From: Candidatus Omnitrophota bacterium
GTDB taxonomy: Bacteria > Omnitrophota > Gorgyraeia > Duberdicusellales > 4484-171
Reading direction: 5' to 3'
DNA length: 64,000 nucleotides
Assembly: GCA_037146775.1 (NCBI GenBank)
Contig: JBAWWL010000004.1
Location: forward strand, 22,471-86,470
Positions 11,295-28,788 of the stretch are shown here, one piece after another (position 1 is the first letter of the stretch; every line of letters begins with the position of its first letter). The notes below the pieces were generated by a model. The model did no database searches. It saw nothing but the letters and a program-made list of their open reading frames with translations, and was not told where the DNA came from. A program made the translations under genes and the position numbers.

Positions 11295-12341
11295 TTACGC
11301 CTTAATAAATTTTACCTGCCTAAATAACTGGAACAGACGGCTAAAAGGCACATACCACTTGGAAAGTTGCCCTAATTGGCCATGAAGCTTCATCTTGCCT
11401 TGAGTTACTGCCACAAAGGAGTCTAGTTTACCTAAAAATATCTGCTCCCAAACAGGGGCGGGACCGGAGATAATAAAAGGTGCGTCGGCATCACAATCTA
11501 ACCTGATAATTTTTCCTTTCTCAAAATTGAATCTGTATGCTTTGTCGGTATCATCCAATTTAATCGCTAATTTTAGCGTTAGATCGAGCTCTTTACCTTT
11601 CGTGGCGATAAATTCATCTTTATTCACCAAATCCACAATCGCCTGAACATGTTCTCGTGAAAACATCGGATAAGCCGATTCACTTTTTGTAAGATTTTCT
11701 TTTAATGCACTGTCTAATTCGTCGAACATTTCTTTGTTAAAAAGACGGGCCAGCGCAGCAACCCTGATCGCCTCTTCCAGCGTTTCAATTAAAGCTAAAA
11801 CATCTTCGAACTTCTCTCCCACAGAAATAACACCATGGTTTTTCAGGATAACCAGGTTATTGGATCTCAAAGCATCAATTACCAGCTGCGGTTTTGTCAC
11901 CGTAGGGGTATCCTGCGCTACAACAGGAATCTCGCCTAAATAAAATTTTGTTTCGAAAGTGAGCGCTTTTAAGTTTTTTTCGACCGCAAAATATCCGTTG
12001 ATTAAGGGCGGATGAGCATGCACAACTGTTTTGGCGGGGAAATTTTTATAGACCAAGCTGTGTAAAGGTAATTCCGAACTTGGTTTCTTTAACGCTGCTG
12101 AATTAAGGGTATTTAAATTAACTTTAACAATGTCTTCTTCTTTTAAATCGCCCAGAAAAGTACCGGTTGCGGTAATAAAAATATTTTCCGAGTCTAACGC
12201 AGCGCTGATATTTCCCGACTTAGCCACACAAAGGCCTGCCTGATAGAGCCGTCTACCAACCTTGATAATTGCATCTTTTATTAACGCTTCATTTGTCATT
12301 TGAATTTTTACATCTGTCATTCGTATTGCATTATTTGTCAT
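11295..12341 (-). CDS. Class II aldolase/adducin-family protein (MtnB-like methylthioribulose-1-P dehydratase candidate) fused to a C-terminal SCP2 sterol-carrier domain
   Basis: The N-terminal ~200 aa match the class II aldolase fold (GNISA..., HxHP metal ligands in VVHAHPP). The C-terminal ~110 aa resemble SCP2 (KLHGQLGQLSKW). The start is ambiguous (ATG at 12341, 12320 or 12299); 12341 overlaps the mtnA stop by 11 nt. Confidence 0.65.
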   Translation of the reverse strand: MTNNAIRMTDVKIQMTNEALIKDAIIKVGRRLYQAGLCVAKSGNISAALDSENIFITATGTFLGDLKEEDIVKVNLNTLNSAALKKPSSELPLHSLVYKNFPAKTVVHAHPPLINGYFAVEKNLKALTFETKFYLGEIPVVAQDTPTVTKPQLVIDALRSNNLVILKNHGVISVGEKFEDVLALIETLEEAIRVAALARLFNKEMFDELDSALKENLTKSESAYPMFSREHVQAIVDLVNKDEFIATKGKELDLTLKLAIKLDDTDKAYRFNFEKGKIIRLDCDADAPFIISGPAPVWEQIFLGKLDSFVAVTQGKMKLHGQLGQLSKWYVPFSRLFQLFRQVKFIKA

Positions 12342-13275
12342 TTATCTCTAAATAAATATGTTCCGTGATCAGATTATTCGGTGTTACATCAAATGCCGGA
12401 TAATAACCTTTGACGCCCTTTGCAGCCAACCGCAAACCTTGATATTCTAAAAGCTCGTTCTCCGGTCTTATTTCTATTTTTATGTCTTTTCCGGTTTTAG
12501 CGCGTGAAGGCGGAGGGCACAAAACATAAAAAGGAATACCGAAATGCTTGGCTAAAATTGCAATCTGATATGTCCCTATTTTATTGGCAATATCGCCGTT
12601 TAAAGCTAAATTATCCGCACCAACAATAACCTTGTTGGCTTTTTTCTCATACATTACCTGCGCCACCATATTATCGGCAATGACGGTAACGTCAAGACCG
12701 GCCTTTTTAAGTTCCCAGGCAGTTAAACGCGCGCCTTGTAAATACGGCCTGGTCTCGGTCACAAAAAAGCTGATATTTTTATTTCCGTGCCGGCAAAATT
12801 GTCCGATTAAGGACATCAGACCGCTGACGTTACAATGCGTAAGCACCACATCATTATCGTTAAGCAACAGACTGGCATCTTGTGCCTGTTGAATACGTTT
12901 CTGCTTTAATATTTCTAAAAAGCCAAGAATATTTTTTTCTAACGGCTCTCCGGCACAGTGCCAACCCAATACCATATCAGTCAGATATTTAAAAGAAAGG
13001 GTGGGCCGGGTAGCGTTAATCTGCGCTGCGGTTTCATGTAAAATCGGCGTAAGGTTCTTTTTATTTTTATTTTTTCTGATCACCAAAAGAAAAGTATATA
13101 ACACCAAGATAACCTGGCCGACTGCGCGCGTTTTCATTTCTTTAATTGCGCGGCAAGCCTGCTCACAATTGTCGGCTTTGATATATTTTATTTTGCGAGG
13201 AAGAAGTGTCTCGTCAAGAATATAAATAGCCTTATTTTTAAATTGGATCGGCCAAAATAATGGTGAAAACTTCAT
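12331..13275 (-). CDS. mtnA: S-methyl-5-thioribose-1-phosphate isomerase (eIF-2B alpha/beta/delta family)
   Basis: Trimmed to MKFSPLFWPIQFKNKAIYILDETLLP... and contains ...TETRPYLQGARLTAWEL...GADNLALNGDIANKIGTY, signature blocks of MtnA/eIF2B. The longer ORF-track N-terminus would overlap the next gene. Confidence 0.8.
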   Translation of the reverse strand: MKFSPLFWPIQFKNKAIYILDETLLPRKIKYIKADNCEQACRAIKEMKTRAVGQVILVLYTFLLVIRKNKNKKNLTPILHETAAQINATRPTLSFKYLTDMVLGWHCAGEPLEKNILGFLEILKQKRIQQAQDASLLLNDNDVVLTHCNVSGLMSLIGQFCRHGNKNISFFVTETRPYLQGARLTAWELKKAGLDVTVIADNMVAQVMYEKKANKVIVGADNLALNGDIANKIGTYQIAILAKHFGIPFYVLCPPPSRAKTGKDIKIEIRPENELLEYQGLRLAAKGVKGYYPAFDVTPNNLITEHIYLEINDK

Positions 13276-13286
13276 ATGTTTTTTGC

Positions 13287-14099
13287 TTAATGATTCGTTA
13301 AATGTTCTCGGTAGTGTGCTGATATTTTTTGTGTCAGCACACCGGGGGAACCTTGCCCTATTTTTTTGCTTCCACATTCTACCAAGGGCATTACCTCAAG
13401 GAGCGCGCTGGACAAAAATGCTTCATCGCTATCGTATAAATCTTCCAAAGTCAATTCCGCCTGACGGACTTTCAGCCGTAATTTTAATAAATCTTTCATT
13501 ATGATTTGCCTGGTAATACCGGCGAAAGCGCCCGACTTATCGGAAGAAGTAAAAATCTGTTTTCCCTTTACCAGAAATAAGTTGCTGCGCGAGCCGCCGA
13601 TAAGATAATTTTGCTGATTCAATAGAAGCGCTTCGTCTTTGTTTACTTTCTGCGCCTGATACCAAGACATTCTATTTTCCATAAAACTTAATGATTTTAT
13701 TTGCGCAAAAGGGCTTTGAGTAGCTTTGCGATAAGGGGAAACTATTGCCGTGAAACCCTTTGCGTAGGCACTCTCCGGATAATAGCCAAAAGTGTCGGCA
13801 TAAATGGTGACGCCGGTAGAATTTCTTTTCTTATACGCTGTGATACGAATATAGGCTTCACTTAAATCGTTTACCTTGAGTAATTCTCGAAGTATCTGTT
13901 CGAAATCCAACGCTACCTTATCCATGTCTAAGACGGCTAAGCCATCATTCAATCGCTGGATGTGTAAATCAAGAAATGGGATTGTACCGCCATAAGCCCG
14001 CAGTGTTTCAAAAACACCCCAGCCGAAAAGAAACCCCGGCTCAAATATTTCCGTAAGTGTTTCTTTTTCAACAAAAGCTGTATTACAAAAAACTTTCAT
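13287..14099 (-). CDS. Class IV aminotransferase (PabC / branched-chain / D-amino-acid aminotransferase family)
   Basis: 270 aa, fold-type IV PLP enzyme pattern (FGWGVFETLRAY..., EAFLSSALLEVMPL). The length favours aminodeoxychorismate-lyase-like. Confidence 0.7.
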   Translation of the reverse strand: MKVFCNTAFVEKETLTEIFEPGFLFGWGVFETLRAYGGTIPFLDLHIQRLNDGLAVLDMDKVALDFEQILRELLKVNDLSEAYIRITAYKKRNSTGVTIYADTFGYYPESAYAKGFTAIVSPYRKATQSPFAQIKSLSFMENRMSWYQAQKVNKDEALLLNQQNYLIGGSRSNLFLVKGKQIFTSSDKSGAFAGITRQIIMKDLLKLRLKVRQAELTLEDLYDSDEAFLSSALLEVMPLVECGSKKIGQGSPGVLTQKISAHYREHLTNH

Positions 14100-15143: not shown

Positions 15144-16601
15144 CTATATGTGCTTCTCTCCCTTCACTGCTCCTGCTTCCCACTTAGAAACACCACGCAT
15201 AACATCCTGGAAGCAAAGTTTTGCCAGTTGATCAAAGTTACTGGTCATAATTCTCTGGATGCGTCCAGGCTTAGAGAAAAATTCCCGCATACACCACGCA
15301 CCGAGCCTTCCGTAATCTTCAAGAGAAAGATGCGTAGTGCGCATGACCGGATGGAGAAAATCCCATTTAAGAAAATCGATCTTTTTAATATCTATCTCTC
15401 CCCGCTTAACCCTCTGCCTCCAGATAGGTGAATTCGGGGCCGGAGTAACATAACCAACCCATAAAATATCCGGGTCTACCTCGTCGGTAAACTCGAATCT
15501 TTGCTTTATGGAGTACTCGGTATCATCATCAAAACCCATCATAATATCAGCCACAATAGCAATATTCTGGGCGCGCAAAATATCAATGGTTTTCTTAATC
15601 TGGTCAATCGTGATGCCTTTGGCTATTTTTTTAAGTTCCTCGGGCGTAGTAACCTCAATGCCAAATACCCCCATGAACATGCCGGTTTCTTTCATGAGGG
15701 GTAAAATCTTCTCGCAATTAACCCAATCAACGGCTCTGCCTAAAGAAACCCATTTAATGGGATTATTCTTCTCTTTTTTCAATTTACAGAATTTCTCAAC
15801 CCTGTCAGGATTGACATTAAAATTATCGTCCTGGATAACTACAACTTTGGTGCCCATTTTATGCAGAAGCTCCAACTCTTCAATCACACGCTGGGGAGAT
15901 TTTGCCCGCCAGGTAAGAAAATCCTGCGGAGAACGGGGATCATATTGATCCCATTCGTAACAAAATGTACAAGCCGAAGGGCAGCCACGAGAAGTCATCA
16001 TTTCTACAAATGGTTTCCAGAAAGTATGCCCGACGTATTTATCCATCGGAAATAAATCGTACGCGGGAAGAGGCAGTGTATCCAGATCTTGCAATAATGG
16101 TTTATGCGGGCCCATGACTGGTTTACCGTCTATCCGACTGGTAACGCCGGCAACGTCTTTCATGTTTTTCCCTTTATCTATCGCCGCAATCAAATCGCAG
16201 AAAGACTCTTCCTCTCCCATAACCACATAATCTATCGCCGGATTGTCTTCCAAGGTCTGAACCGGCAAAGCGGAATACCAGAGGCCTCCCATAACTATCT
16301 TTACTTTGGGTAAAACTTGTTTTATTCTTGCGGCAGCCTGGTTAAAATACCAGATTATACCAAAACCTACTGAACAATGAATCATATCGCCGAGGACAAC
16401 TACGTCAGGATTTTTTTCCTTAACTTTTGCGGCGAGCTCTTCAATGGGGATTCCTAAGACGGTCGCATCCAAGACTTCCAGATTATTATAACCTTTTTCG
16501 CGAATATACGCTCCCCACTGGGCATAAAGCTGGTTAGGTGCAAAGTGGTTACCATGCGTTGCCCAAGCGCCGACTTTTGGCATAACGAAAAGAATTTTCA
16601 T
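15144..16601 (-). CDS. B12-binding radical SAM protein (class B radical SAM)
   Basis: 485 aa. N-terminal cobalamin-binding Rossmann-like domain followed by a radical-SAM CxxxCxxC motif (SRGCPSACTFCYEW). Confidence 0.85.
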   Translation of the reverse strand: MKILFVMPKVGAWATHGNHFAPNQLYAQWGAYIREKGYNNLEVLDATVLGIPIEELAAKVKEKNPDVVVLGDMIHCSVGFGIIWYFNQAAARIKQVLPKVKIVMGGLWYSALPVQTLEDNPAIDYVVMGEEESFCDLIAAIDKGKNMKDVAGVTSRIDGKPVMGPHKPLLQDLDTLPLPAYDLFPMDKYVGHTFWKPFVEMMTSRGCPSACTFCYEWDQYDPRSPQDFLTWRAKSPQRVIEELELLHKMGTKVVVIQDDNFNVNPDRVEKFCKLKKEKNNPIKWVSLGRAVDWVNCEKILPLMKETGMFMGVFGIEVTTPEELKKIAKGITIDQIKKTIDILRAQNIAIVADIMMGFDDDTEYSIKQRFEFTDEVDPDILWVGYVTPAPNSPIWRQRVKRGEIDIKKIDFLKWDFLHPVMRTTHLSLEDYGRLGAWCMREFFSKPGRIQRIMTSNFDQLAKLCFQDVMRGVSKWEAGAVKGEKHI

Positions 16602-16650: not shown

Positions 16651-17424
16651 TTATTTCTCTGGATGTTCCTGCTTATATGGTATCACCGGTTTGGTCCAGG
16701 GCGTTTGTTGATTTATAACTGCGATCTCTAAAGGACACACATTCGCCGGAACCGTCAAAGCAAACCGTACTGCATTTTCAATCGCTTCGGTGGTCATCAG
16801 ACGCGAAGCGTCTGCAGTTATTTCCTGCAATTTACCGGTTAAGTCGGTATCAGTAACCCCGGGTAAGATTGACGTAACCTTTATACCCCGATCGCGCAAT
16901 TCCCAAAATAATCCTTTTGAAAAAGCCCGTAAACCAACCTTAAGCGAACTATATACGATAAAGTTTCTGGGTAATGGGTCGCAAAGAGTCGAACCAGAAA
17001 CCATATTAATAATTGCTCCTGATTTCTTAGCTATCATATCATTGATCACTAGGCGGATTAAACGCACATAGCCCAGATAGTTAGTGTGCGCTAAGCGCTC
17101 AAAGTCCTCGATAGGCTGTTTCTCGAAAGGATACTGGCTGGAAACACCGGCGTTATTAATTAAAATATCAATATCGCCGAACGTTTCTTTCGCTTTGTTA
17201 ACCAGGTTTTCTAAGTCATTAAGCTTGGTTACGTCGCAGACTACTGGCAGAACTTTTACTTTGTATTTTTTTGCGAGCTCTTCGGCTGTTTCTTTAAGCG
17301 GGCCTTCCTGGCGCGCGGCAATAACTAGATTTATACCCAGGCTTGCGGCAGTCGACGCTATGGCTTTACCGATTCCGCGGCTTGCTCCGGTAACAACAGC
17401 AGTTTTATTCTTTAGGTTGCTCAT
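16651..17424 (-). CDS. Short-chain dehydrogenase/reductase (FabG-like ketoreductase)
   Basis: 257 aa with TGASRGIGKAIA (TGxxxGxG) and NNAG plus YxxxK catalytic motifs. Confidence 0.85.
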   Translation of the reverse strand: MSNLKNKTAVVTGASRGIGKAIASTAASLGINLVIAARQEGPLKETAEELAKKYKVKVLPVVCDVTKLNDLENLVNKAKETFGDIDILINNAGVSSQYPFEKQPIEDFERLAHTNYLGYVRLIRLVINDMIAKKSGAIINMVSGSTLCDPLPRNFIVYSSLKVGLRAFSKGLFWELRDRGIKVTSILPGVTDTDLTGKLQEITADASRLMTTEAIENAVRFALTVPANVCPLEIAVINQQTPWTKPVIPYKQEHPEK

Positions 17425-17875
17425 CCAATATCCCTCCTCTTATCGGAAATTTGCTCAATTCCGAACGTAGGTCCTCCGCCGCTTTCCGGAAATCTGCCTG
17501 GGTCAGCTGTAAATCTACCCAAAGATCGTTCATTTCTCCGTCATAAAGAGCCCAGGAAGGCCTTACGCTATATTCAAAATATATCCGCAAATTAATATAA
17601 TTTCCTGATTTACCATTTATAATAAATCGCAGGTGCGGCTTGGCAAATTTTTTTTCCGTTTCGGTTTCCTCGTCTGCCGCCAAAGCTTGGAACCAATTAA
17701 TTATACTGTCGATTTCGAATGTTTGCAGGGCCGGATCAAAAACCTTCCAGTAACCATAGGGAGTGCTGACATAGAGACCAACGATCAGCCAGTTATCTTT
17801 GCGCACGGGCGGAATTTCGTATGCGCGAATCATGAGCCCGAATTCCGAACCGTGAGGACCTTTTAAAATTAGCAT
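17405..17875 (-). CDS. Hypothetical protein (no recognisable domain)
   Basis: 156-aa ORF co-directional with the cluster and overlapping the SDR start by 20 nt. No motif recognised by eye. Confidence 0.45.
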   Translation of the reverse strand: MLILKGPHGSEFGLMIRAYEIPPVRKDNWLIVGLYVSTPYGYWKVFDPALQTFEIDSIINWFQALAADEETETEKKFAKPHLRFIINGKSGNYINLRIYFEYSVRPSWALYDGEMNDLWVDLQLTQADFRKAAEDLRSELSKFPIRGGILDEQPKE

Positions 17876-19096: not shown

Positions 19097-19150
19097 CAGA
19101 TTACACAGATTTTTATAATCGGTGCAATCATTGTCCTAATCTGTGTAATC
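19097..19150. repeat. Perfect 12-bp-stem hairpin (gattacacagat/atctgtgtaatc), family 3; shares the 18-mer tcctaatctgtgtaatca with 26089..26106
   Basis: Stem arms at 19099..19110 and 19139..19150. The right arm overlaps the stop codon of the SRPBCC gene. An identical 18-mer recurs 7 kb away. Confidence 0.45.
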
Positions 19151-19619
19151 ATTTCATCGTAGAGATTTCTTTTTCAATTACTTCCTTAAAAATTTTTAAA
19201 TTGTCTTTTGAATGTTTATTAATAAAGCCTTCGACCTGTTCATCATTGAATTTCGCTTTTTCATCCATCTCAAAATGCTGGATCCAAGTCATCTCAATGC
19301 CTGTGGTGCGCGGGGTATACAACCAGATGATTTTCATAAACTTAAAAGGAAACTTCGGCTCTTCTCTTTCGGCATAGGCAAGATATTTATCTTTAAATAA
19401 TAAGCGCCATGATTGCCAACTGCGATTTTCGTCATCGGTAAGTTTAAAAGTAATTTTATTGTTTTCCTTTTTAACAACCTCGGCCTTTTTATATTCTCCG
19501 CCGAACAGCTCTGTCCAGCGCGTAATATCATTAGAAATATCAAAGATCTTTTCGTAGGGTGCATTGATAACAATTGAATTAACTGTATGTCCCATTTGTT
19601 CCTCCTTTATATTGTTCAA
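19149..19619 (-). CDS. SRPBCC (START/Bet v1-like, polyketide cyclase/dehydrase family) protein
   Basis: 156 aa, the size and pattern of Polyketide_cyc2-type proteins. Lies adjacent to the cyclase, ACP and KS genes. Confidence 0.6.
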   Translation of the reverse strand: MNNIKEEQMGHTVNSIVINAPYEKIFDISNDITRWTELFGGEYKKAEVVKKENNKITFKLTDDENRSWQSWRLLFKDKYLAYAEREEPKFPFKFMKIIWLYTPRTTGIEMTWIQHFEMDEKAKFNDEQVEGFINKHSKDNLKIFKEVIEKEISTMK

Positions 19620-19626
19620 AGTTTAG

Positions 19627-19678
19627 AGTTCAATGTTCAATGAATACTCTCTGAACACTGAACGTTTAACATTGAACT
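19627..19678. repeat. Hairpin with 11-bp perfect stem (agttcaatgtt/aacattgaact), family 2 (GTTCAAYG half-sites); related copy at 41609..41639
   Basis: Seen directly in the sequence. The right arm overlaps the stop codon of the cyclase gene. Confidence 0.4.
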
Positions 19679-20474
19679 ATAATATTGCTACTACTCTCGC
19701 CCAGGCAGCTCCGGTAGTTTTAATTTTTACCGGAAAACAAATTACTTTAAATCCGAAATCCGGCAATTGCTCCAAATGAGCTAAGCGTTCTATATGGATA
19801 AACTCTCTTTTACGGCCGTAGAAATGCGTAGGGTATAGCTTCTTGGGATCTTTTGTTTCTAAAAACTCTTTGAGCATAAATTTATAAGGCCGGTCTATAC
19901 CCATGGTATCTACTCCAAAGATCGTAATACCTTTATCTAAAAGATAATCTATCGCCGAAATATCTACTCCTGGATAATCGCTAAAATATTTTTGCCCGCC
20001 GTATAATTTATCCGCCCCGGTACGTAAAAGTACAATGTCTAAGGCTTTGAGCGAATAATTTATTTTCTTTAATGCTGCCTCGATGTCGGCAGCAATAATG
20101 ACTTCATTTGGTTTTTTATGCGAAACGTCAAGTTTTACACCGTTTTGATAACACCACTGGAGAGGAATTTCTTCGGCGGTCTTTGAGGCGCGGCCTTCGG
20201 ACTTTGAACCGTAATGAAATGAGTAATCCAAGTGTGTTCCGATGTGTACTGGCGAATGCACTATTTCCAAAGACAAGAACTCTTCGTCGGGCAAGTCTTC
20301 TTTTCTTACAATACGCTTACCTAATATATATTGGAGTTTACCTTTAAGGGTTTTACCCATCAATACGCGGTTGAATTTTTCAACGCCTGCCTGATGAGAC
20401 ACACGCTCAATCTCCACATGGTGGACTTCAAAGGCCTTATCGTCTATGGGAAGGCTTAGGTCGATTATTTGCAT
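19677..20474 (-). CDS. PF04199 'putative cyclase' family protein (kynurenine formamidase-like fold)
   Basis: 265 aa with the HxGTHxD metal motif (HIGTHLDYSFH) characteristic of the cyclase/arylformamidase family. Confidence 0.75.
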   Translation of the reverse strand: MQIIDLSLPIDDKAFEVHHVEIERVSHQAGVEKFNRVLMGKTLKGKLQYILGKRIVRKEDLPDEEFLSLEIVHSPVHIGTHLDYSFHYGSKSEGRASKTAEEIPLQWCYQNGVKLDVSHKKPNEVIIAADIEAALKKINYSLKALDIVLLRTGADKLYGGQKYFSDYPGVDISAIDYLLDKGITIFGVDTMGIDRPYKFMLKEFLETKDPKKLYPTHFYGRKREFIHIERLAHLEQLPDFGFKVICFPVKIKTTGAAWARVVAIL

Positions 20475-20557: not shown

Positions 20558-20788
20558 TCACTTCTTCTTTTCAATTAGTTGTGCAATTTCAAGTGGTGTT
20601 GAAAATTTAGAGATCTCATTAGCCGCGAGTTTAACGCCAAAACGCTTGCCCAACGAAACACAAAGCTCAACCATTTCGGTTGAATCCACTCCTATAGAAT
20701 CGTATAATTTTTCACTTTCGCCAATTTCATCCACTTTCACATCCAAGATATCTGCGATTGCGTTTACGACATCCTCTTTTGAAGCCAT
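20558..20788 (-). CDS. Acyl carrier protein
   Basis: 76 aa with a phosphopantetheine-attachment motif (GVDSTEMVEL) in the standard helix II position. Confidence 0.85.
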   Translation of the reverse strand: MASKEDVVNAIADILDVKVDEIGESEKLYDSIGVDSTEMVELCVSLGKRFGVKLAANEISKFSTPLEIAQLIEKKK

Positions 20789-20821: not shown

Positions 20822-21826
20822 TTATTTCAAACTATGTTTCTTGAAAAATTCCCAAATCTGCTCGAATGATATATCGCAAGAAACAGGTCCAACCATATTC
20901 GCTGGTAAATACTGCGCTCCACTGGGATACGCGTGCCCCATTCCTTCTACCATACATAACACAACTTCTGAACCTTGTGCGCAATCGTTATAGATCACGC
21001 ACCTCGCTGCGCCGTTTTCGTATCCGGCGACCTGTTTATCTGAACATTGGTTTATCTTTTTCCATACATCCACCACTTGATAAGGAGTCATCCTTTGATA
21101 GGGCATAGCAAAACCTGTACCACTATCTTTAGCAAAAATACTTCTTGGTTCGCTACCGTCGGGAGGATTGGCTGGATCAGCCGTACCGTGGATATTCATT
21201 ACCGGCATTGACCGGGACGGTTGGCATTCTGATTTTACTGCAGCGGGAGTCACAGTAGCAATAGCTGCTATTTTTTCTGAAAGTTCGCAGCCAAGCCGAT
21301 TAGTCATCAAACCACCGTTCGAAATACCGGTAGCATAAATCCTTCTGGCATCAACTTTAAATTTCGCTTTCAATTCGTCTATCATTTTGGAAATAAAGCC
21401 TACGTCGTCGGCGGAACCGCAACATTCGCCGGTTGCCCATTTCCCACCATTCCAAACTCCTCTTAAATGCCCAAATGTTAACTCGCCGGTTCCTTCCGGA
21501 ACCGCCAAGATAAAACCAAATTTATCTGCTGCTTTATCTACACCATCCATATAGACTGCTCGCATATCGCCAGAGCCTCCATGGATATAGATAACAACTG
21601 CAAAAATCGTTTTTCCGTCATAGGCTGGCGGGAGATGAACCTTATATTTTCTAATTATTCCGTCATGCGCTAAAGAAAATTCCGGATCGTCAGCACCGTA
21701 AGACTTTTCTTTCTTTTCTTGTGGGCGTTTCTTTATTTTTTCCTTCAAAATATTTTGAGCGGAAACGCTGGAAGAAAATACAAATAAAATACTCAATATC
21801 GCAATTATAGCTTTGTGCTTTTCCAT
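20822..21826 (-). CDS. Secreted alpha/beta-hydrolase esterase of the PHB-depolymerase (LpqC/Esterase_PHB) type
   Basis: Trimmed to MEKHKAIIAILSILFVFSSSVSA... (signal peptide). IYIHGGSG and GISNGG (GxSxG nucleophile elbow) motifs. Its ATG overlaps the KS-beta stop as TAATG. Confidence 0.65.
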   Translation of the reverse strand: MEKHKAIIAILSILFVFSSSVSAQNILKEKIKKRPQEKKEKSYGADDPEFSLAHDGIIRKYKVHLPPAYDGKTIFAVVIYIHGGSGDMRAVYMDGVDKAADKFGFILAVPEGTGELTFGHLRGVWNGGKWATGECCGSADDVGFISKMIDELKAKFKVDARRIYATGISNGGLMTNRLGCELSEKIAAIATVTPAAVKSECQPSRSMPVMNIHGTADPANPPDGSEPRSIFAKDSGTGFAMPYQRMTPYQVVDVWKKINQCSDKQVAGYENGAARCVIYNDCAQGSEVVLCMVEGMGHAYPSGAQYLPANMVGPVSCDISFEQIWEFFKKHSLK

Positions 21827-23070
21827 TACTTCTCTACTGCCAACACCACATTTATCCCGCCGCGGCCGCGCGCCAACAACAATGCTTTTTTTATCTTCTT
21901 TTCGCGGGCAACGTTCGGCGTATAGTCGAGATCGCAATAAGGGTCTGCCATTTCATAATTGACGGTAGGAAGAACTAAATTATTGTTCATGGAAAGCAGA
22001 GTTATGATCAAATCTAGGGCTGTTTGTGCACCCAAGAGATTTCCGTACATACTTTTCGGCGCACTGAGACTAATGTGTTCTAATTCTTTACCGAATACAT
22101 GTTTTAAGGCTTGCGTCTCCAGATAATCGCCCATCACGGTCGCCTCAGCATCAAGACAAATATAATCTATTTCTTTCTTGGTCCAACCCGCATCCCGAAG
22201 GCATTCCTCTATCGCATATTCGAGCATATCCGGGGTTGGGCTATAGCGCTGGTAATGATACCCGTCTGAAGAAAATCCAACACCCCTCAAAAATCCGTAA
22301 ATATGCGCGCCTCGGGACTTGGCGTGTTCTTCTTTTTCTAAATTGACTATGCCTGAGCCTTCGCCCAAAACAAAACCATCACGGTATAAATCATAGGGTT
22401 TATACGCTTTTTTCGGATTAAGGTTGTTCTTAGACAATTGTCCGCAGGAATTTGAACTTAAAAGCGCGTAAGGCGTGATGGGCGCTTCCATTCCTCCGGC
22501 TAAAATATAATCATTTTTTCCTTCACTAATATTTTTCGCGCCATACCACAGGGCAAGCGCCGAAGAAGCTTTATCGCATACAACCGTTTTGCTGTAACCC
22601 TTAAAACCGTAATAAATAGTGATCTGACCTTGCGGAGCTGCAGGAAACCATGCGCTGGCCATATAGGGTGAGACCCCTTCTCTACCTTCAATATACATAT
22701 CGCGCAGTTCTGTTTCCGCAAAAAGCCAACCCCCTATCGCATTACCCATAAAAACACCGACACGTTTTTTATCTACTTTATCCAAATCTACTTTTGCATC
22801 CTGCAACGCTTGCTCGCTGGCAACAAGTGCCATATGTGAAAACACGTCTATTTTTTTCACCAAGCGGCTGGGCAGATGCGAATAATGGTCAAGTTCGTGA
22901 ACTTGGCCGGCAATACGTGAAGGATACAAAGAAGCATCAAAACGCGTAATCTCGTCTATAAAGGATTTGCATTTTTTTAGGTTCGCCCAAAAAGTTTCTT
23001 TTTTTAAACCCGCGGGAGAAACAACGCCGATGCCGGTTATAGCAACTCTTTCTTTCATCATACTCTCCAT
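21826..23070 (-). CDS. Ketosynthase paralogue lacking the catalytic His-His pair (chain-length-factor-like KS-beta)
   Basis: 414 aa with a thiolase/KAS fold. The HGTGT and GHxxGAAG His motifs present in the adjacent KS are replaced by CLDAEATVMGDY and NLLGAQTALD. The active-site Cys region is altered (VVCDKASSAL). 13-nt overlap with the upstream KS. Confidence 0.75.
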   Translation of the reverse strand: MESMMKERVAITGIGVVSPAGLKKETFWANLKKCKSFIDEITRFDASLYPSRIAGQVHELDHYSHLPSRLVKKIDVFSHMALVASEQALQDAKVDLDKVDKKRVGVFMGNAIGGWLFAETELRDMYIEGREGVSPYMASAWFPAAPQGQITIYYGFKGYSKTVVCDKASSALALWYGAKNISEGKNDYILAGGMEAPITPYALLSSNSCGQLSKNNLNPKKAYKPYDLYRDGFVLGEGSGIVNLEKEEHAKSRGAHIYGFLRGVGFSSDGYHYQRYSPTPDMLEYAIEECLRDAGWTKKEIDYICLDAEATVMGDYLETQALKHVFGKELEHISLSAPKSMYGNLLGAQTALDLIITLLSMNNNLVLPTVNYEMADPYCDLDYTPNVAREKKIKKALLLARGRGGINVVLAVEK

Positions 23071-24308
23071 TTTTTGAATATAATAGACGAATGTATTCCG
23101 GAAAATCCACTGCTGGTTTTCAAAATATAATTAGGCATATATTGCCTTTTTACATTGGGAATATAATCTAAGTCACATTTCGGGTCAGGTTCTTCCTGGT
23201 TTATCGTGGGAGGTAAATAGCCTTTTTCGAAAATCATCGCGCATAAAACACTTTCTACTGCGTTCGCCGCAGCCAAGGGGTGTCCGATCATCGACTTCAC
23301 TGAACTGATAGGCAATTTATATGCGTAATCGCCGAATACTGCCTTATAGGCGTTAGTCTCAAAAACGTCGTTTTGACGGGTAGATGACCCGTGAGTGTTG
23401 ATATAATCTATATCTTCATTTTTTATTCCTGCGTCTTTAATTGCGTCTTTAATGCAGCGCTCCATTGCTTCGCCATCTTCCGGCAGATCGGTCATATGAA
23501 AGGCATTGCAACTGGTACCGTAACCGACTAATTCTCCATAAATATGCACACCTCTTTTTTTGGCGTGTTCAAGTTCTTCCAAAACTAAAACCCCGGCGCC
23601 TTCGGAAATTACAAAACCATTTCTCTTGTTATCAAAGGGACGGCTGGCTTTGTGTGGTTCGTCGTTGTTCTTAGCCAAAACATTAACTACGTCAAACGCG
23701 CCAAAGGTAATCGGACACACCGGCGCCTCCGTGCCTCCGGCGATAATCATGTCTTGCCGGCCTTCTCGGATAAGTTCGAAAGAAAATCCGAGCGAATCCG
23801 TTGCGGCGGTACAGCCGGTAGAAACTGTACAATTGAGTCCCTGTGTATGATAGAGAGCTCCTATTTCGGCACTCGGCGTATTAAACATGGCTGCATCATA
23901 AAGATATGGCCGGCCCTTACGCGGATCGATAGGTTTTTTACCCCAATCGGTTACCAACAAGAATTCCTCTTCCATGAAGCGCGTACCGCAGATAGCGTTA
24001 GCCAAAACGACTCCGCATCTTTTCCTGTCTATCTTGTTAAAATCAATATGGCTGTCCTCAACTGCCTGCTTGGCCGCGGCAATACCAAACTGTACATATC
24101 TATCCATGCGTATATGGTCTTTTATTCCGAATTTTAACGGGTCAAAACCTAAATCTTGTGAGGCTATTTTTGAGACAAATAAGCTTACGTCAAAATTTTC
24201 AACCCTTTCAACAAAAGGTTTACCCGCAATAAGGTTGTCGTAAAAAGTATTCTTATCTTCTCCTGCCGCGCTGATTACCCCGATTCCTGTTATAACTACA
24301 CGTTTCAT
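23058..24308 (-). CDS. Beta-ketoacyl synthase (KS-alpha; FabF/type II PKS KS family)
   Basis: 416 aa. Active-site Cys in VSTGCTAATDSLG, His in YINTHGSST and His in MIGHPLAAA. Confidence 0.85.
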   Translation of the reverse strand: MKRVVITGIGVISAAGEDKNTFYDNLIAGKPFVERVENFDVSLFVSKIASQDLGFDPLKFGIKDHIRMDRYVQFGIAAAKQAVEDSHIDFNKIDRKRCGVVLANAICGTRFMEEEFLLVTDWGKKPIDPRKGRPYLYDAAMFNTPSAEIGALYHTQGLNCTVSTGCTAATDSLGFSFELIREGRQDMIIAGGTEAPVCPITFGAFDVVNVLAKNNDEPHKASRPFDNKRNGFVISEGAGVLVLEELEHAKKRGVHIYGELVGYGTSCNAFHMTDLPEDGEAMERCIKDAIKDAGIKNEDIDYINTHGSSTRQNDVFETNAYKAVFGDYAYKLPISSVKSMIGHPLAAANAVESVLCAMIFEKGYLPPTINQEEPDPKCDLDYIPNVKRQYMPNYILKTSSGFSGIHSSIIFKKWRV

Positions 24309-24324
24309 TTTTTACCTCTTATTA

Positions 24325-24416
24325 TCAGAAGTCAGACGTCAGAGGACAGAGAACAGAAGATAAATTTTTCTGTCGTCCACCATCTGTCACCTATCGTCTG
24401 TCCTCTGTTTTCTGCT
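24325..24416. repeat. Inverted repeat, family 1 copy C (left arm intergenic, right arm overlapping the last 8 codons of the ApbA-fusion gene)
   Basis: atcagaagtcagacgtcagaggacagagaacagaagataaa ... gtctgtcctctgttttctg. It shares acagaagataaa and gtctgtcctctg with copy A. Confidence 0.5.
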
Positions 24417-26027
24417 CACCTTAAACACTATATTTCCTCCGTCAGGACAAGTCACTGTATTAATACCGTCCGGATCATCCATAAAGAAAAACTTTGCGCC
24501 GAAGTTAAGAGCAAATAACGCAGGAAAAGCGCAATGATATGCCGCACCACAGAAACCTTCCGAACATTTCAGCCCCTTAACTTCAAATTTATCTCCCAGC
24601 TTATACTGATACGCACATTTTCCTTTTGCTTGCACTACTTCTAAAACCATATCTTTAGGGTTGGGCCCTTTATGATTCGGGTCTTTTTCTATTGTTTCTA
24701 TATTTCCTTCTTTGTCAAATATTTCCGCTTTAAACTCTAATTTTCCTCCATCAGGACAAGTCACTAAAAGCGATCGTTGATTATCTCTAAAAGGAAATTT
24801 TGCGCCAAAACTTAAAGCATAAATAACAGGAAATAATGCGTGCGCCAGCCCCAGACAAAAATGCTTGGGGGGATGAGTGAAATCTTCCAAGATAATTTCA
24901 TCACCAATCTTGTAGCCGTGGTAACAATCTCCTTCTACTTTATTGACGGTAAGTTTCAAGCGTGGAAAGGGCGTATTAACTCTTTCTTCGCCCGCCAAAG
25001 TGGCTGCCTGAGGAATCAAATTCTTGGTTTTTGCAACAAGCTCGTCTATGGTTAGAAACTTTTTATCTTTCTCTACTTTATGCACAAGTTCAGCAAGTTT
25101 TTTATTGAGCGGGGTGTGGTAAGAGCATTCTTTTCCTAATTCCATAAAAGCTCCATTTAAATAATCAATTTCTGAAGGCCGGTCCCGCTTGATACTTTGC
25201 AATATTGAGCCATAAAGCGGCTCCTTGCTTAAACCGACCATGATGCCAGAAAATATTTTAGCTGCGTCTTTTATCGGCAAAGACGTTAATTTTACTATTT
25301 GTTCAATGCGAAAATCGGGTAAATCAAACAGCTTTATTCCCGCTTTTCTTACGACACCAAGGCCCTCCTGCCATATGCCGATACTTATTTCGCATAAATC
25401 CAAATTAGCGAAACACTCCTGCATACTTTTTCCGGTAATGGCGGGAATGCAGTTGTTGGCGTTAGCAAAAACTTTCAGCCACTTCATTCCCATAATATTA
25501 TCGCTCACTTCAACGGGAAAAATTTTGCTTAGTATATTCTTTACCTCTGCAACGCTGCTGTCGTTTTTAGCGTAAGGCTTGCCTATTACCCATTTTCTGT
25601 CGAAGTTATGCACCACCTTCCCCGGCTCTAAATAGGTTGAGCCAAACATCACAATGCTAGAAATAATATTTTCTCGAGCGGTATACCTGGAAACAATTTC
25701 ATCAGCTTTTACGCCATTTTGGGTGGTTACAATAGGCGTATTTTCTAAATATTTTCGGTTTTGTTCCAAAGCATTTTCTATATCCTGGGTTTTGGTTGCC
25801 AAAATAATAAGGTCTACCTGAGTATTAAGTTTTTCAAAAACATCGATTTTGATTTTGAAATTTCCCCTCACACCGGAGATTTGCAGACCATTTTTAACTA
25901 TAGCGCTGACAGAGTCTTTATGCCCAACCAAAAAGATATCTTGGTTGGCTTCCTTTAGATACCCAGCAACCAAACCTCCAATAGCCCCCGAACCTATAAC
26001 CGCTATTTTCATACTCGCTCCGCTCAT
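24387..26027 (-). CDS. Ketopantoate reductase (ApbA/PanE)-family NAD(P) oxidoreductase fused to two C-terminal Cys/His-rich ~85-aa repeats (motif C-x2-[YH]...FC...FP...FGAKF.F.D...CPDGG..FK)
   Basis: The N-terminal IAVIGSGAIGG Rossmann motif and ApbA-like body cover roughly residues 1-330. Two tandem repeats cover residues about 375-455 and 460-540, each ending in an invariant V-T-CPDGG block. Confidence 0.65.
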   Translation of the reverse strand: MSGASMKIAVIGSGAIGGLVAGYLKEANQDIFLVGHKDSVSAIVKNGLQISGVRGNFKIKIDVFEKLNTQVDLIILATKTQDIENALEQNRKYLENTPIVTTQNGVKADEIVSRYTARENIISSIVMFGSTYLEPGKVVHNFDRKWVIGKPYAKNDSSVAEVKNILSKIFPVEVSDNIMGMKWLKVFANANNCIPAITGKSMQECFANLDLCEISIGIWQEGLGVVRKAGIKLFDLPDFRIEQIVKLTSLPIKDAAKIFSGIMVGLSKEPLYGSILQSIKRDRPSEIDYLNGAFMELGKECSYHTPLNKKLAELVHKVEKDKKFLTIDELVAKTKNLIPQAATLAGEERVNTPFPRLKLTVNKVEGDCYHGYKIGDEIILEDFTHPPKHFCLGLAHALFPVIYALSFGAKFPFRDNQRSLLVTCPDGGKLEFKAEIFDKEGNIETIEKDPNHKGPNPKDMVLEVVQAKGKCAYQYKLGDKFEVKGLKCSEGFCGAAYHCAFPALFALNFGAKFFFMDDPDGINTVTCPDGGNIVFKVSRKQRTDDR

Positions 26028-26109: not shown

Positions 26110-26373
26110 TTATGTTTGTATGTATTTTTCGTATTCAATACCAAGCTTAGTAAATAATCTTTTCATCATATCCTTGAATGCCGGAGGAATTTCCTTGAAA
26201 AATGCTTCCACCAGCTCTTTCTCTTCTACGCTTGTCAGATTTTTACTTTTGGCAATTTCTTCCGCCGACTCCTTAACCAATCTTTCGGCAATAGTACGGT
26301 GAAATTGCGGCAAATTGCTGATTACTTTATCGAATATTTCTTTTGCCTTTGGACTCCATTGCATATCAGACAT
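26110..26373 (-). CDS. Small alpha-helical protein of unknown function (weak resemblance to PCP_red-type domain)
   Basis: 87 aa. The W-SPKA-E...LPQFHRTIAERLVKESAE pattern resembles the W..EA...PxFVR motif of the protochlorophyllide-reductase C-terminal (PF08369-like) module. Low confidence. Confidence 0.4.
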   Translation of the reverse strand: MSDMQWSPKAKEIFDKVISNLPQFHRTIAERLVKESAEEIAKSKNLTSVEEKELVEAFFKEIPPAFKDMMKRLFTKLGIEYEKYIQT

Positions 26374-26464: not shown

Positions 26465-27190
26465 CTAAATTATTTCAAATACCGCCCTGGTCATCTTTTC
26501 TTCCGCATCGAATAGCCGAAAATCAGCGAAACCCATTTCACCGGTAAGCAAGTTATCCGAAGCTACCAATACCGCGGCTACTTTCCTTTTGTAGACATTA
26601 GCAATAGTCACGAACGGACTGGTCACCATGTCGACACAAATAGCGCCTTTTTCTATGTAAGGATTTACGATCTCTTTGGTTTCCCTAAACATCGCGTCCG
26701 TTGTCCAACAGCCGCCCTGATACACCGTTCCTTCTTTCTTGAAGATTGCCGCTAATTTACCGGTTAATTCTTTATCTACCTGAGAAACAAACTTTTCATC
26801 CACATAGTAACGCGTAGCGCCGTCGCCCCTGATAACTTTATCGACTACAACAAAATCTCCCACAGTCATTTCCTGCAACATCCCTCCGCAAGAACCCAAA
26901 CGAATAAGCGTCTGTATTCCTCCTACGCATAATATTTCTGTAACGAACGCTGAATCGGGGGCATAGAAGCCGCCGTTACCTACGGTGACTTTTTTTCCTT
27001 TGTACGTTCCGGTCCAAAAGGTATATCCTAAAAATGTAAAATTTTTTACGGGGTTTCCCAGATATTGAAGGCAACGCTGAGCTCGCTGCATTTGACCGCT
27101 GATAATACCGATTTCGCCAAAGTCTCCCGGCCTAAACTGTAAAGACTCTAGTAACCCCTTCGCATGCAGATGAACATCTCTTTGCATCAT
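26465..27190 (-). CDS. PNP_UDP_1 family nucleoside phosphorylase/nucleosidase (MTA/SAH-nucleosidase or futalosine-hydrolase-like)
   Basis: 241 aa with GxGGxxTL-type phosphate-binding and a fold pattern (TVGNGGFYAPDS..., VGGIQTLIRLGSCGG) typical of PF01048. Confidence 0.7.
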   Translation of the reverse strand: MMQRDVHLHAKGLLESLQFRPGDFGEIGIISGQMQRAQRCLQYLGNPVKNFTFLGYTFWTGTYKGKKVTVGNGGFYAPDSAFVTEILCVGGIQTLIRLGSCGGMLQEMTVGDFVVVDKVIRGDGATRYYVDEKFVSQVDKELTGKLAAIFKKEGTVYQGGCWTTDAMFRETKEIVNPYIEKGAICVDMVTSPFVTIANVYKRKVAAVLVASDNLLTGEMGFADFRLFDAEEKMTRAVFEII

Positions 27191-27243
27191 AAGCGCAACT
27201 CCTTTGTAAATAGAAATAAATCCTCGTTAATATACTCGCGGTT

Positions 27244-28788
27244 TTATACTGACCCCGCGCTGTTTTCTCGTTTAGTTTTGCGTGTATTCGCTGCTATTAA
27301 TTTTGTTTTATCGATCTTGCCTACCCTATTTTTTGGCAATTCTTTTACATATTCAAAGTAGTGTGGGATCTTAAAATGCGCCAGGTGAACTTTTAAAAAT
27401 TCTTTCAGCTCATCCAGGGCTATCGGTTCGCCGTCCTTGGTTACGATAAATGCCTTGGGTACTTCGCCGCGCAACTCATCGGGCAAACCGATCACTGCAA
27501 CTTCTTTTATGTTCGGATGACGCTGCATCTTTTCTTCTACCTCGGCTGAGAATACAATCTCTCCCGCGACTTTTATCATATCCTTTTTCCTTCCTACCAG
27601 ATAAAAAAGCCCCTCCTTACAATAGGCGACATCGCCGGTTTTAAGCCATCCGTCGCCGGTCAAAACAGCCTGTGTCATCTGCGGCGCTTTATAATAACAT
27701 ACCATCACGCCATCGCCCTTCACCAAAAGCTCCCCTGTTTCGCCATACAATAATTTATTTCCTTTGTCATCCACTACTTTTGCGTCCATCCGGAAACCGA
27801 AGCTACCAATACTGTCTATGGCTTTTCCGTCCGGGGGCGAATAGGTGTTCGGAGCTGCTGTTTCTGTCATTCCCCAGCCGTTTAGTAATATCGCCTTGGG
27901 GCAAGAACGATGGAATTTTTTCAAAAGTTCCGGTGATGACGGTGCGCCAAAAACTACCGCATAGCGTAATGATGCCAACTCATAATAATCGTATTCTTTC
28001 AACGATAAAATCGCCACATACATCGCCGGTACGATACAAAATATGGTTACTTTATATTTTTCGATGTTTTTGAGAAACTCTAGCGGATGAAAGCGCTCCA
28101 TAAGCACCATTGTGGAAGCAAAACGAAGCATTAAAAGAATATAATCAAGGCCTCCGATGTGAGAGAAAGGTACGCCACCAGTAAGAAAAATATCTTTATC
28201 CGAAACTCCTAAAAAATGGTTGATGGTATCAACCGGGTTATCCAGATGCTTGTAACTAAGCATGACCCCTTTGGGATTACCAGTTGAGCCCGAGGTATAA
28301 AATAAAGAAGAAATATCGCTGTCTTTAATCTCTATCTTTGGCTCTGCCTCGGTATTATTAGCTAAAACATCATCCCAAAGAAGACACCCTCTCACCCTTT
28401 CCTTGCACACAATTACGTCTTTGAGCGAAGAGCAGGCGTTTTTAATATTCATGATATTGATATCTTTTCTCGGCTGGATAATTAATATTTTCGCTTCGCA
28501 ATGGTTTAAGATATCAATAATTTCTTCTTCGGTAAGCATAAAGTCGAGTGGAACAAGTGTTAACCCGGCACAAAAAACCGCTATGTAGCTATAGACCGCT
28601 TCGGGGATATTTGAAAGAAAAAGCGCTACCTTGTCTGGTTTTCTAACTCGCGCGCCGTAAAGATAATTAGCCAATCTAAAAGAAGGCCCCTTAAGTTGCG
28701 CAAAAGTAATATTCTGTCCCTCGAAAATAATTGCTGGTTTTTCGGGATACGAAGAAACTTGTTTGAGTAATAATTCTTTTACATTCAT
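27244..28788 (-). CDS. AMP-dependent synthetase/ligase (acyl/aryl-CoA or acyl-ACP ligase)
   Basis: 514 aa with the AMP-binding motif YTSGSTGNPKGV, the TGD motif (LKTGD) and the C-terminal PKNRVGKIDK lysine motif. Confidence 0.85.
   Translation of the reverse strand: MNVKELLLKQVSSYPEKPAIIFEGQNITFAQLKGPSFRLANYLYGARVRKPDKVALFLSNIPEAVYSYIAVFCAGLTLVPLDFMLTEEEIIDILNHCEAKILIIQPRKDINIMNIKNACSSLKDVIVCKERVRGCLLWDDVLANNTEAEPKIEIKDSDISSLFYTSGSTGNPKGVMLSYKHLDNPVDTINHFLGVSDKDIFLTGGVPFSHIGGLDYILLMLRFASTMVLMERFHPLEFLKNIEKYKVTIFCIVPAMYVAILSLKEYDYYELASLRYAVVFGAPSSPELLKKFHRSCPKAILLNGWGMTETAAPNTYSPPDGKAIDSIGSFGFRMDAKVVDDKGNKLLYGETGELLVKGDGVMVCYYKAPQMTQAVLTGDGWLKTGDVAYCKEGLFYLVGRKKDMIKVAGEIVFSAEVEEKMQRHPNIKEVAVIGLPDELRGEVPKAFIVTKDGEPIALDELKEFLKVHLAHFKIPHYFEYVKELPKNRVGKIDKTKLIAANTRKTKRENSAGSV

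Follow-up and report, generated by a model that had tools for sequence, protein, structure and literature searches.

Type II polyketide synthases (PKSs) are thought to need only a ketosynthase (KS), a chain length factor (CLF), an acyl carrier protein (ACP), cyclases and tailoring enzymes. In the den and ant clusters, KS, CLF and ACP are combined with TcmN- and OxyN-type cyclases and an oxidoreductase (PMC7693217). KS-CLF pairs of Omnitrophica appear in a catalogue (PMC10132072), and our literature searches returned nothing else on the Omnitrophota cluster and nothing on ketopantoate reductases (KPRs) in type II PKSs. An enzyme of the KPR family, KivR, supplies D-2-hydroxyisovalerate to a nonribosomal peptide synthetase (NRPS) (PMC3478992). 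Here we describe an open reading frame (ORF; 24387..26027, minus strand) in a 64,000-nucleotide stretch of contig JBAWWL010000004.1 from a Candidatus Omnitrophota bacterium, hereafter the window, which joins an ApbA/PanE (KPR) family reductase to two repeats of the TIGR04076 family within a type II PKS gene cluster. TIGR04076 is a catalogued family with no function on record, no Pfam model and no solved structure; in the literature searched, two papers mention it in passing and nothing deals with function, with a pairing with a KPR-like reductase or with an association with type II PKSs; Burrichter et al. guessed a role in "redox or iron cluster metabolism". The family and the fused proteins are already present in databases, the latter under the name "2-dehydropantoate 2-reductase"; the novelty lies in an accessory module of a type II PKS that is strongly conserved and had gone unrecognised.

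Domain architecture of the fused protein

The ORF comprises the following parts:

24387..26027, minus strand: whole ORF, ApbA/PanE-family reductase plus tandem TIGR04076 module, 546 amino acids
25578..26006, minus strand: ApbA N-terminal Rossmann domain, residues 8-150 (PF02558, E=1.8e-32), with GSGAIGG, K79 and QN104G
25071..25499, minus strand: ApbA_C helical domain, residues 177-319 (PF08546, E=4.1e-16), with K185, N189, N192, S274 and E286
25218..25322, minus strand: conserved insertion of ~20-35 amino acids, residues ~236-270 (...IFSGIMxxLSKEP...), seen as gaps in alignments to 5hws/3hwr
24972..25016, minus strand: fusion linker, residues 338-352, IPQAATLAGEERVNT, variable in sequence, predicted local distance difference test (pLDDT) 48
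24717..24959, minus strand: TIGR04076 repeat 1, residues 357-437, predicted b-b-a-b-b, Cys triad C368/C391/C424
24411..24653, minus strand: TIGR04076 repeat 2, residues 459-539, predicted b-b-a-b-b, Cys triad C471/C493/C527

The second ATG (26012, M6) is likely the true start, with a product of 541 amino acids, because a Shine-Dalgarno GGAG sits 5 nucleotides upstream of it, homologues start with MKIAVIG, and an NCBI protein of 541 amino acids (P0271) is 100% identical to the ORF product. The initial annotation, made from the sequence, had described a complete ketopantoate-reductase-like domain followed by two related C-terminal repeats, and both parts were recovered. The two Pfam domains of ApbA are present with intact catalytic residues, and the NCBIfam model TIGR00745 (apbA_panE) scores 166.6 bits (cutoff 141.35). 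Every position listed as common to the repeats (C, H/Y, FC, FP, FGAKF and VTCPDGG) is present, and the repeats belong to TIGR04076, the family that had been named there for testing, with 95.7 bits (cutoff 33) over two stretches and the family signature (Cys triads, G375/G478, FP, CPDGG) in each. Aligned with one another by the Smith-Waterman method, they score 144, against 25.5 +/- 4.4 and a maximum of 45 in 500 shuffles; the two repeats of ~81 amino acids are genuine. The view that the fusion is not a characterised architecture also stands, given that TIGR04076 has only passing mention in the literature and that the fused proteins are named just "2-dehydropantoate 2-reductase"; the repeat region matches a family that is named and uncharacterised.

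A coupled gene pair in the PKS operons of Omnitrophota

A search with the tandem part retrieved 842 proteins, nearly all of them free-standing, ~198 amino acids long, ~80% identical and from Omnitrophota. In these relatives, apbA (334 amino acids) and the tandem gene are adjacent and separate. A scan of species-representative genomes found relatives in 282 genomes, and wherever the contig allows, the genes follow the order DUF2621-like, ApbA, tandem TIGR04076, KSalpha, KSbeta/CLF (82 of 82 loci). Starting from the most divergent tandems, a second scan recovered this order in 67 of 70 metagenome loci, including lineages that are only 54-63% identical, and locus L167 keeps it too; the exceptions are three unlinked loci of the P0121 type. 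Over about 150 Omnitrophota loci, the core order is almost invariant. It includes an 87-amino-acid DUF2621-like gene that precedes apbA in Omnitrophota wherever the contig reaches, and which is absent from the Bacillota cluster described below.

Few proteins of the cluster are as conserved as the tandem module. In split loci, identity to the window is 80.5% for the tandem, 65% for KSalpha, 57% for KSbeta, 54.5% for ApbA and 47.5% for the ACP, so that the novelty proposed in the initial annotation is not undone by poor conservation: the repeats exceed the reductase and most other cluster proteins. Invariant positions amount to 77 of 194 in the tandem part, over ~40 Omnitrophota sequences, and to 47 of 337 in ApbA.

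At the species level, the two genes are split in 71 of 80 loci and fused in nine. The distance from the apbA stop to the tandem start in split loci is mostly -8 to +5 nucleotides, being exactly 1 nucleotide in 27 loci (e.g. TAA-A-ATG) and -4 in eight loci (ATGA-type overlap), which argues for translational coupling of the two genes. The fused form is represented by ~35 protein clusters of 531-548 amino acids from independent metagenomes, all with the same architecture and 59-100% identity, in which a linker (~15 amino acids in the ORF of the window) replaces the stop/start junction of split genomes. The linkers can be sorted into two or three unrelated types at the least, and the closest relatives of one fused group are split forms, so the fusion arose repeatedly, at least twice. 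The fusion is therefore real as an architecture but represents a minority form, the conserved unit being an adjacent, translationally coupled gene pair. The ORF of the window is the fused form of this unit, which consists of an NAD(P)H reductase of the KPR/ApbA family and a tandem TIGR04076 protein and is a fixed component of the "ancestral-type" type II PKS operon throughout Candidatus Omnitrophota.

Many metagenome-assembled genomes (MAGs) labelled "uncultured Planctomycetales/Planctomycetia" (L024, L026, L030, L031 and others) carry the Omnitrophota cluster at ~80% identity; the taxonomy given to these bins is probably incorrect.

Link to the carrier protein in Bacillota

Two representatives of the family, P0162 and P0164, combine one TIGR04076 domain and an ACP, which carries a DSTE serine motif, in the same polypeptide. 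P0162 comes from a Bacillota MAG (locus L165) with the gene order TetR, KS, KS-CLF, TIGR04076-ACP, OxyN-type cyclase, SRPBCC cyclase and phosphopantetheinyl transferase, followed further on by an ACP, hydrolases, a free TIGR04076 ORF and KSIII. The fusion thus fills the ACP slot of a cluster that shares 44-47% identity with the window in its KS, CLF and cyclases, and the second, free TIGR04076 ORF adjoins KSIII. A plasmid search with the TIGR04076-ACP fusion returned plain ACPs only. The association of TIGR04076 with "ancestral" type II PKSs spans two phyla and is primarily to the minimal PKS and the ACP.

The reductase half

The closest solved relative of the reductase half is the KPR of T. 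kodakarensis (5hws/5ayv). In E. coli PanE, Lys176, Asn98 and Glu256 are catalytic and Asn180, Asn184 and Ser244 bind the carboxylate (PMC3478992, PMC10127515), whereas Asn241 binds the 4-hydroxyl of ketopantoate (PMC10127515). The ORF product has K185 for Lys176, N189 for Asn180, N192 for Asn184, S274 for Ser244, E286 for Glu256 and N104 for Asn98, and the equivalents of all six residues and of Lys72 are invariant in 45 sequences. The counterpart of Asn241, located three residues ahead of S274, is hydrophobic throughout this set (Leu in 43 sequences, Val in one and Ile in one), with the E. coli numbering of this position being approximate as it rests on the S-x-L-Q motif; T. kodakarensis KPR carries Asn there. 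The insertion at residues ~236-270 is conserved among homologues and absent from solved KPRs, and all equivalog-level KPR models remain far below their cutoffs (e.g. NF005092, 142 against 500; NF005091, 127 against 252; NF006083, 120 against 371).

Judged from these residues, the reductase half looks like an NAD(P)H-dependent reductase of the 2-oxo-acid type that appears to be active. Because of the hydrophobic Asn241 equivalent, the extra insertion and the equivalog scores far below cutoff, its substrate is probably other than ketopantoate, despite the database name. The insertion could possibly provide a contact surface for the TIGR04076 partner.

The TIGR04076 family and its Cys triad

Among 1.84 billion cluster representatives, searched exhaustively, there are only 258 TIGR04076 relatives, which occur as single (~90 amino acids), double (~190 amino acids) and triple or quadruple (350-400 amino acids) repeat proteins. 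Across 55 diverse single-domain members, three Cys and one Gly are the only invariant residues and two Pro are nearly invariant, the conserved Cys being spaced ~22 and ~33 residues apart. This pattern makes the metal- or cofactor-binding module suggested by the initial annotation plausible, since apart from three Cys, a Gly and a Cys-Pro motif no position is invariant or nearly so in these 55 members. An AlphaFold2 model of the tandem (pLDDT 90.3, predicted TM-score (pTM) 0.86) consists of two b-b-a-b-b units; the predicted places of the three Cys in each are the b1-b2 loop, the helix N-cap and the turn between b3 and b4 that contains CPDGG. A Foldseek comparison of the TIGR04076 model with the PDB gave no significant match; phmmer and a profile of the 55 sequences gave chance matches only among PDB sequences (E>=0.39), and a Pfam scan of the ORF protein and the 55 members at E<=10 gave no consistent family.

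Six contexts of single-domain TIGR04076 genes (Dehalococcoidales, Acidobacteriia and others) contain no recurrent partner gene. The P0121-type loci (L095-L097) hold a divergent Omnitrophota paralogue of the tandem, which has a Cys-containing N-terminal extension (MCPDKCDE...) and no linkage to ApbA or KS, with tetratricopeptide repeat, PilZ and alginate-export proteins as neighbours. In L166, a four-repeat protein (P0143; 7001..8212) starts 7 nucleotides after a radical S-adenosylmethionine (SAM) gene, in a cluster that also holds four more B12-radical SAM genes, a short-chain dehydrogenase/reductase (SDR) and two proteins of ~910 amino acids without Pfam match.

The PKS gene cluster of the window

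The genes around the fusion include the following:

27244..28788, minus strand: AMP-forming acyl/aryl-CoA ligase, candidate starter-unit activator
26465..27190, minus strand: PNP_UDP_1 nucleoside phosphorylase/nucleosidase-family protein
26110..26373, minus strand: 87-amino-acid DUF2621/PCP_red-like protein, with weak similarities that include the C-terminal part of protochlorophyllide reductase BchB
23058..24308, minus strand: KSalpha, catalytic Cys in STGCT, His/His present
21826..23070, minus strand: KSbeta/CLF-like partner, Lys where the catalytic Cys would be
20822..~21700, minus strand: secreted polyhydroxybutyrate (PHB)-depolymerase/S9-like esterase, signal-peptide-like N-terminus
20558..20788, minus strand: ACP of 76 amino acids, GVDSTE motif
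19677..20474, minus strand: OxyN-type cyclase (PF04199)
19149..19619, minus strand: TcmN-type SRPBCC aromatase/cyclase
17405..17875, minus strand: WapI-like immunity family ORF, 156 amino acids (E=3e-25)
16651..17424, minus strand: SDR ketoreductase
15144..16601, minus strand: B12-binding radical SAM enzyme, best NCBIfam match BchE at 201 bits, below cutoff

The fusion gene had been placed between the KS pair (21826..24308) and the genes for the PNP_UDP_1-family protein and the AMP-ligase (26465..28788), which is correct, with the 87-amino-acid ORF intervening. Its upstream neighbours on the same strand are the AMP-ligase, the PNP_UDP_1-family protein and the DUF2621/PCP_red-like protein; downstream follow KSalpha, KSbeta, esterase, ACP, OxyN-type cyclase, TcmN-type SRPBCC cyclase, a major facilitator superfamily (MFS) protein, SDR, B12-radical SAM enzyme and Amidohydro_2. 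The cluster has the components of a type II PKS: a KSalpha with and a KSbeta/CLF without the Cys, a discrete ACP, and TcmN-type and OxyN-type cyclases, whose order is the same in L001, L003, L165 and L167. Canonical actinobacterial CLFs carry Gln where the KS has its catalytic Cys; this Gln is replaced by Lys in the window and by Arg in L001 (11847..13094) and L165 (6730..7959), which raises the question of how chains are primed.

The esterase between KSbeta and ACP occurs only in the clade of the window (L012, L014) and is absent from other relatives; many split-type relatives have the B12-radical SAM gene directly between KSbeta and ACP. BchE is an anaerobic oxidative cyclase, and the B12-radical SAM enzyme of the cluster may carry out an O2-independent oxidation or a methylation of the aromatic product. 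Flanked by the MFS and SDR genes, the WapI-like ORF shares 20 nucleotides with the start of the latter; it has no tblastn match in the loci of 82 relatives, and L001 has an unannotated ORF of 136 amino acids after the SDR instead. The PNP_UDP_1 protein, an IF-2B/MtnA-like isomerase (12331..13377, minus strand) and a class II aldolase-SCP2 fusion (11295..12341, minus strand) resemble a set for salvage of 5'-deoxyadenosine/methylthioadenosine (dihydroxyacetone phosphate shunt-like). These salvage-like genes flank the radical-SAM-containing cluster, and in L104, L105, L132 and L133 the isomerase, aldolase and radical SAM genes lie directly upstream of the DUF2621-like gene. An SMC gene with an intein bearing a LAGLIDADG endonuclease domain is found at 1..1600 of L001, a related Omnitrophota contig.

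Proposed role and alternative explanations

We tentatively propose, at a level of confidence that falls a little short of probable, that the unit is a PKS-dedicated 2-oxo-acid-type reductase coupled to a metal-binding module acting with the carrier-protein machinery. The ApbA and tandem halves would form a stoichiometric complex, in which the three Cys of each TIGR04076 repeat would coordinate a metal or an Fe-S centre and the module would engage the ACP and/or KS-CLF. The ApbA half would use NAD(P)H on a 2-oxo-acid-type carbonyl of a polyketide starter unit or intermediate, not on ketopantoate, and may work in a KivR-like mode, with product or substrate passed on through the TIGR04076 module. 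Several observations weigh against this proposal. The 55 single-domain members share just three Cys and no invariant fourth ligand, and the nearness of the three Cys in each repeat is argued from the predicted topology only. The full-length model has a pTM of 0.65, with a disordered linker (pLDDT 48) and no docking of the tandem onto ApbA. The AMP-ligase and an aminotransferase that would fit a starter-unit route lie outside the invariant core. Single-domain TIGR04076 genes of other phyla have variable surroundings without PKS genes and the P0121-type tandems of Omnitrophota are unlinked to the PKS cluster, so the basic biochemical role of TIGR04076 must be broader than that of a PKS accessory. 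Finally, no ApbA is encoded within 8 kb in L165, and the reductase partnership is therefore specific to the Omnitrophota lineage.

Other roles for the two halves have to be considered. TIGR04076 may itself be the catalyst, which we regard as unlikely: a Cys3-bound Zn or an open-iron [4Fe-4S] cluster would serve as Lewis acid on a carrier-bound carbonyl or hydroxyl, with ApbA and TIGR04076 catalysing consecutive steps, the module being a dehydratase acting after ketoreduction by ApbA, an aldol cyclase, or a priming decarboxylase that offsets the Gln-less CLF. Three invariant Cys and no fourth ligand is the pattern of open-coordination catalytic sites, for which aconitase-type clusters and the Zn-Cys3 site of aminolevulinate dehydratase (ALAD) are precedents. 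The lack of a FabZ/FabA-type dehydratase in the cluster of the window, the Lys or Arg of the CLF in both phyla, the ACP fusion, which would put the domain in cis with the phosphopantetheine-bound substrate, and the second TIGR04076 copy beside the priming KSIII of L165 would agree with such a role. However, the domain has no sequence or fold similarity to known dehydratases, cyclases or decarboxylases, its 80 amino acids are few for a full active site, proteins with three or four repeats resemble carriers or wires more than enzymes, and the orphan single-domain genes have no consistent substrate-related context. A different possibility, which we rate as less likely again, is that the repeats are polyferredoxin-like Fe-S electron carriers to B12-radical SAM enzymes or another reductive step, with ApbA as NAD(P)H entry point or anchor. 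The Cys triads with their Cys-Pro motif, the arrays of one, two, three and four repeats, the distribution of the family mainly in anaerobic lineages (e.g. Bilophila, Methanobrevibacter) and the guess of Burrichter et al. are in line with electron transfer, as are the conservation of the B12-radical SAM gene in the Omnitrophota cluster, often directly after KSbeta, and the setting of the four-repeat P0143, which is surrounded by five radical SAM genes. As anaerobes often carry such genes, these neighbours may be there by chance, and in the Bacillota cluster, which has two TIGR04076 domains, none occurs within 8 kb. ApbA/KPR enzymes, moreover, transfer hydride and have no flavin with which to split the electron pairs of NAD(P)H. 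The repeats have three conserved Cys each, where ferredoxin-type proteins use four Cys ligands per cluster, no ferredoxin-type CxxCxxC motif and no Fer4 Pfam match at E<=10, and the ACP fusion is hard to reconcile with a pure electron carrier.

It is improbable that the reductase is a genuine 2-dehydropantoate 2-reductase for CoA/phosphopantetheine synthesis, with the tandem as a regulatory or stabilising appendage and a proximity to PKS genes that reflects phosphopantetheine demand. The TIGR00745 score over cutoff, the T. kodakarensis KPR as closest solved structure, the intact Lys/Asn/Glu set and the NCBI name are what such an enzyme would display, but the equivalog models score far under their cutoffs, the Asn241 equivalent is hydrophobic in 45 of 45 sequences, and the conserved insertion is absent from KPRs. 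Across ~150 loci the gene is never beside pantothenate genes and nearly always between the DUF2621-like and the tandem/KS genes, and KPR-family enzymes with other substrates exist (KivR; PMC3478992). The fused gene could also be an artefact, caused by a sequencing frameshift or by a stop codon missing from the MAG assembly, or else a pseudogene, as most relatives are split, often by 1 nucleotide, and a single error could fuse them. The chance of this is negligible: the linker adds ~12 in-frame amino acids, more than a lost stop would, and an artefact is ruled out by the ~35 independent fused clusters, their recognisable but diverged linkers and the nine fused species-level genomes.

In a more far-reaching form of the proposed metal-binding, carrier-engaging module, to which we assign a low likelihood, TIGR04076 would be an unrecognised metallo-domain with an unsolved fold and an obligatory ACP-engaging subunit of the ancestral type II PKS, e.g. 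in chain initiation or handling where the CLF lacks Gln. The cluster, shared by at least 282 species, would in that case serve to make an aromatic metabolite of physiological importance rather than a sporadic antibiotic. More generally, a Cys-triad domain that is tied to the PKS core in two phyla, and in Omnitrophota is better conserved than the synthase itself, suggests that a functional part of "ancestral" aromatic PKSs has so far been overlooked, and it provides the first testable functional context for TIGR04076. The analysis also flags the systematic misannotation of these proteins as "2-dehydropantoate 2-reductase", and the spread of the cluster over an uncultured phylum suggests that its product may be central to Omnitrophota biology.

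Comparison with known systems

With the PanE/ApbA enzymes (E. coli PanE; T. kodakarensis KPR, PDB 5HWS/5AYV), the reductase half shares the two-domain fold, Rossmann and helical, and the conserved active-site set. Unlike them, it is encoded in a PKS operon, has a fused or coupled tandem TIGR04076 partner and lacks a pantothenate-gene context. The 2-ketoisovalerate reductases of the KivR type (beauvericin/enniatin) offer a parallel, as KPR-family NAD(P)H reductases recruited to a carrier-protein assembly line (PMC3478992). These are stand-alone fungal enzymes acting with an NRPS, whereas the Omnitrophota enzyme is bacterial, belongs to a type II PKS cluster and is paired with a module that bears Cys triads; the proposed resemblance is one of functional analogy.

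Two other members of TIGR04076, HMPREF0179_00636 of Bilophila wadsworthia and LOCUS_05160 of Methanobrevibacter smithii U29, belong to the same hidden Markov model family and have the Cys triad, Gly and Cys-Pro motif in a unit of ~85-90 amino acids. Both are single-domain orphans whose neighbours vary and to which no role has been assigned, whereas the Omnitrophota form is a tandem, 80% conserved, with a fixed place in the PKS operon and a reductase as its coupled or fused partner. An analogy may also be drawn with the MbtH-like proteins, which are small conserved accessory proteins of NRPSs, free or fused, and stoichiometric partners that bind adenylation domains and have no Cys triad. TIGR04076 resembles them in conservation, cluster location and free or fused occurrence, with no relationship in sequence or fold.

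Among PKSs, the closest counterparts are the "ancestral" non-actinomycete type II systems (dendrubin, den; AQ-256, ant; clostrubin), whose KS-CLF-ACP, cyclase pair and oxidoreductase are also present in the cluster of the window. No ApbA, TIGR04076 or DUF2621-like component is mentioned in the published descriptions of den, ant and clostrubin that were consulted, whereas the cluster of the window has all three. The Omnitrophota cluster further differs from these systems by the Lys or Arg at the active-site position of its CLF and by its distribution, which is phylum-wide and not sporadic.

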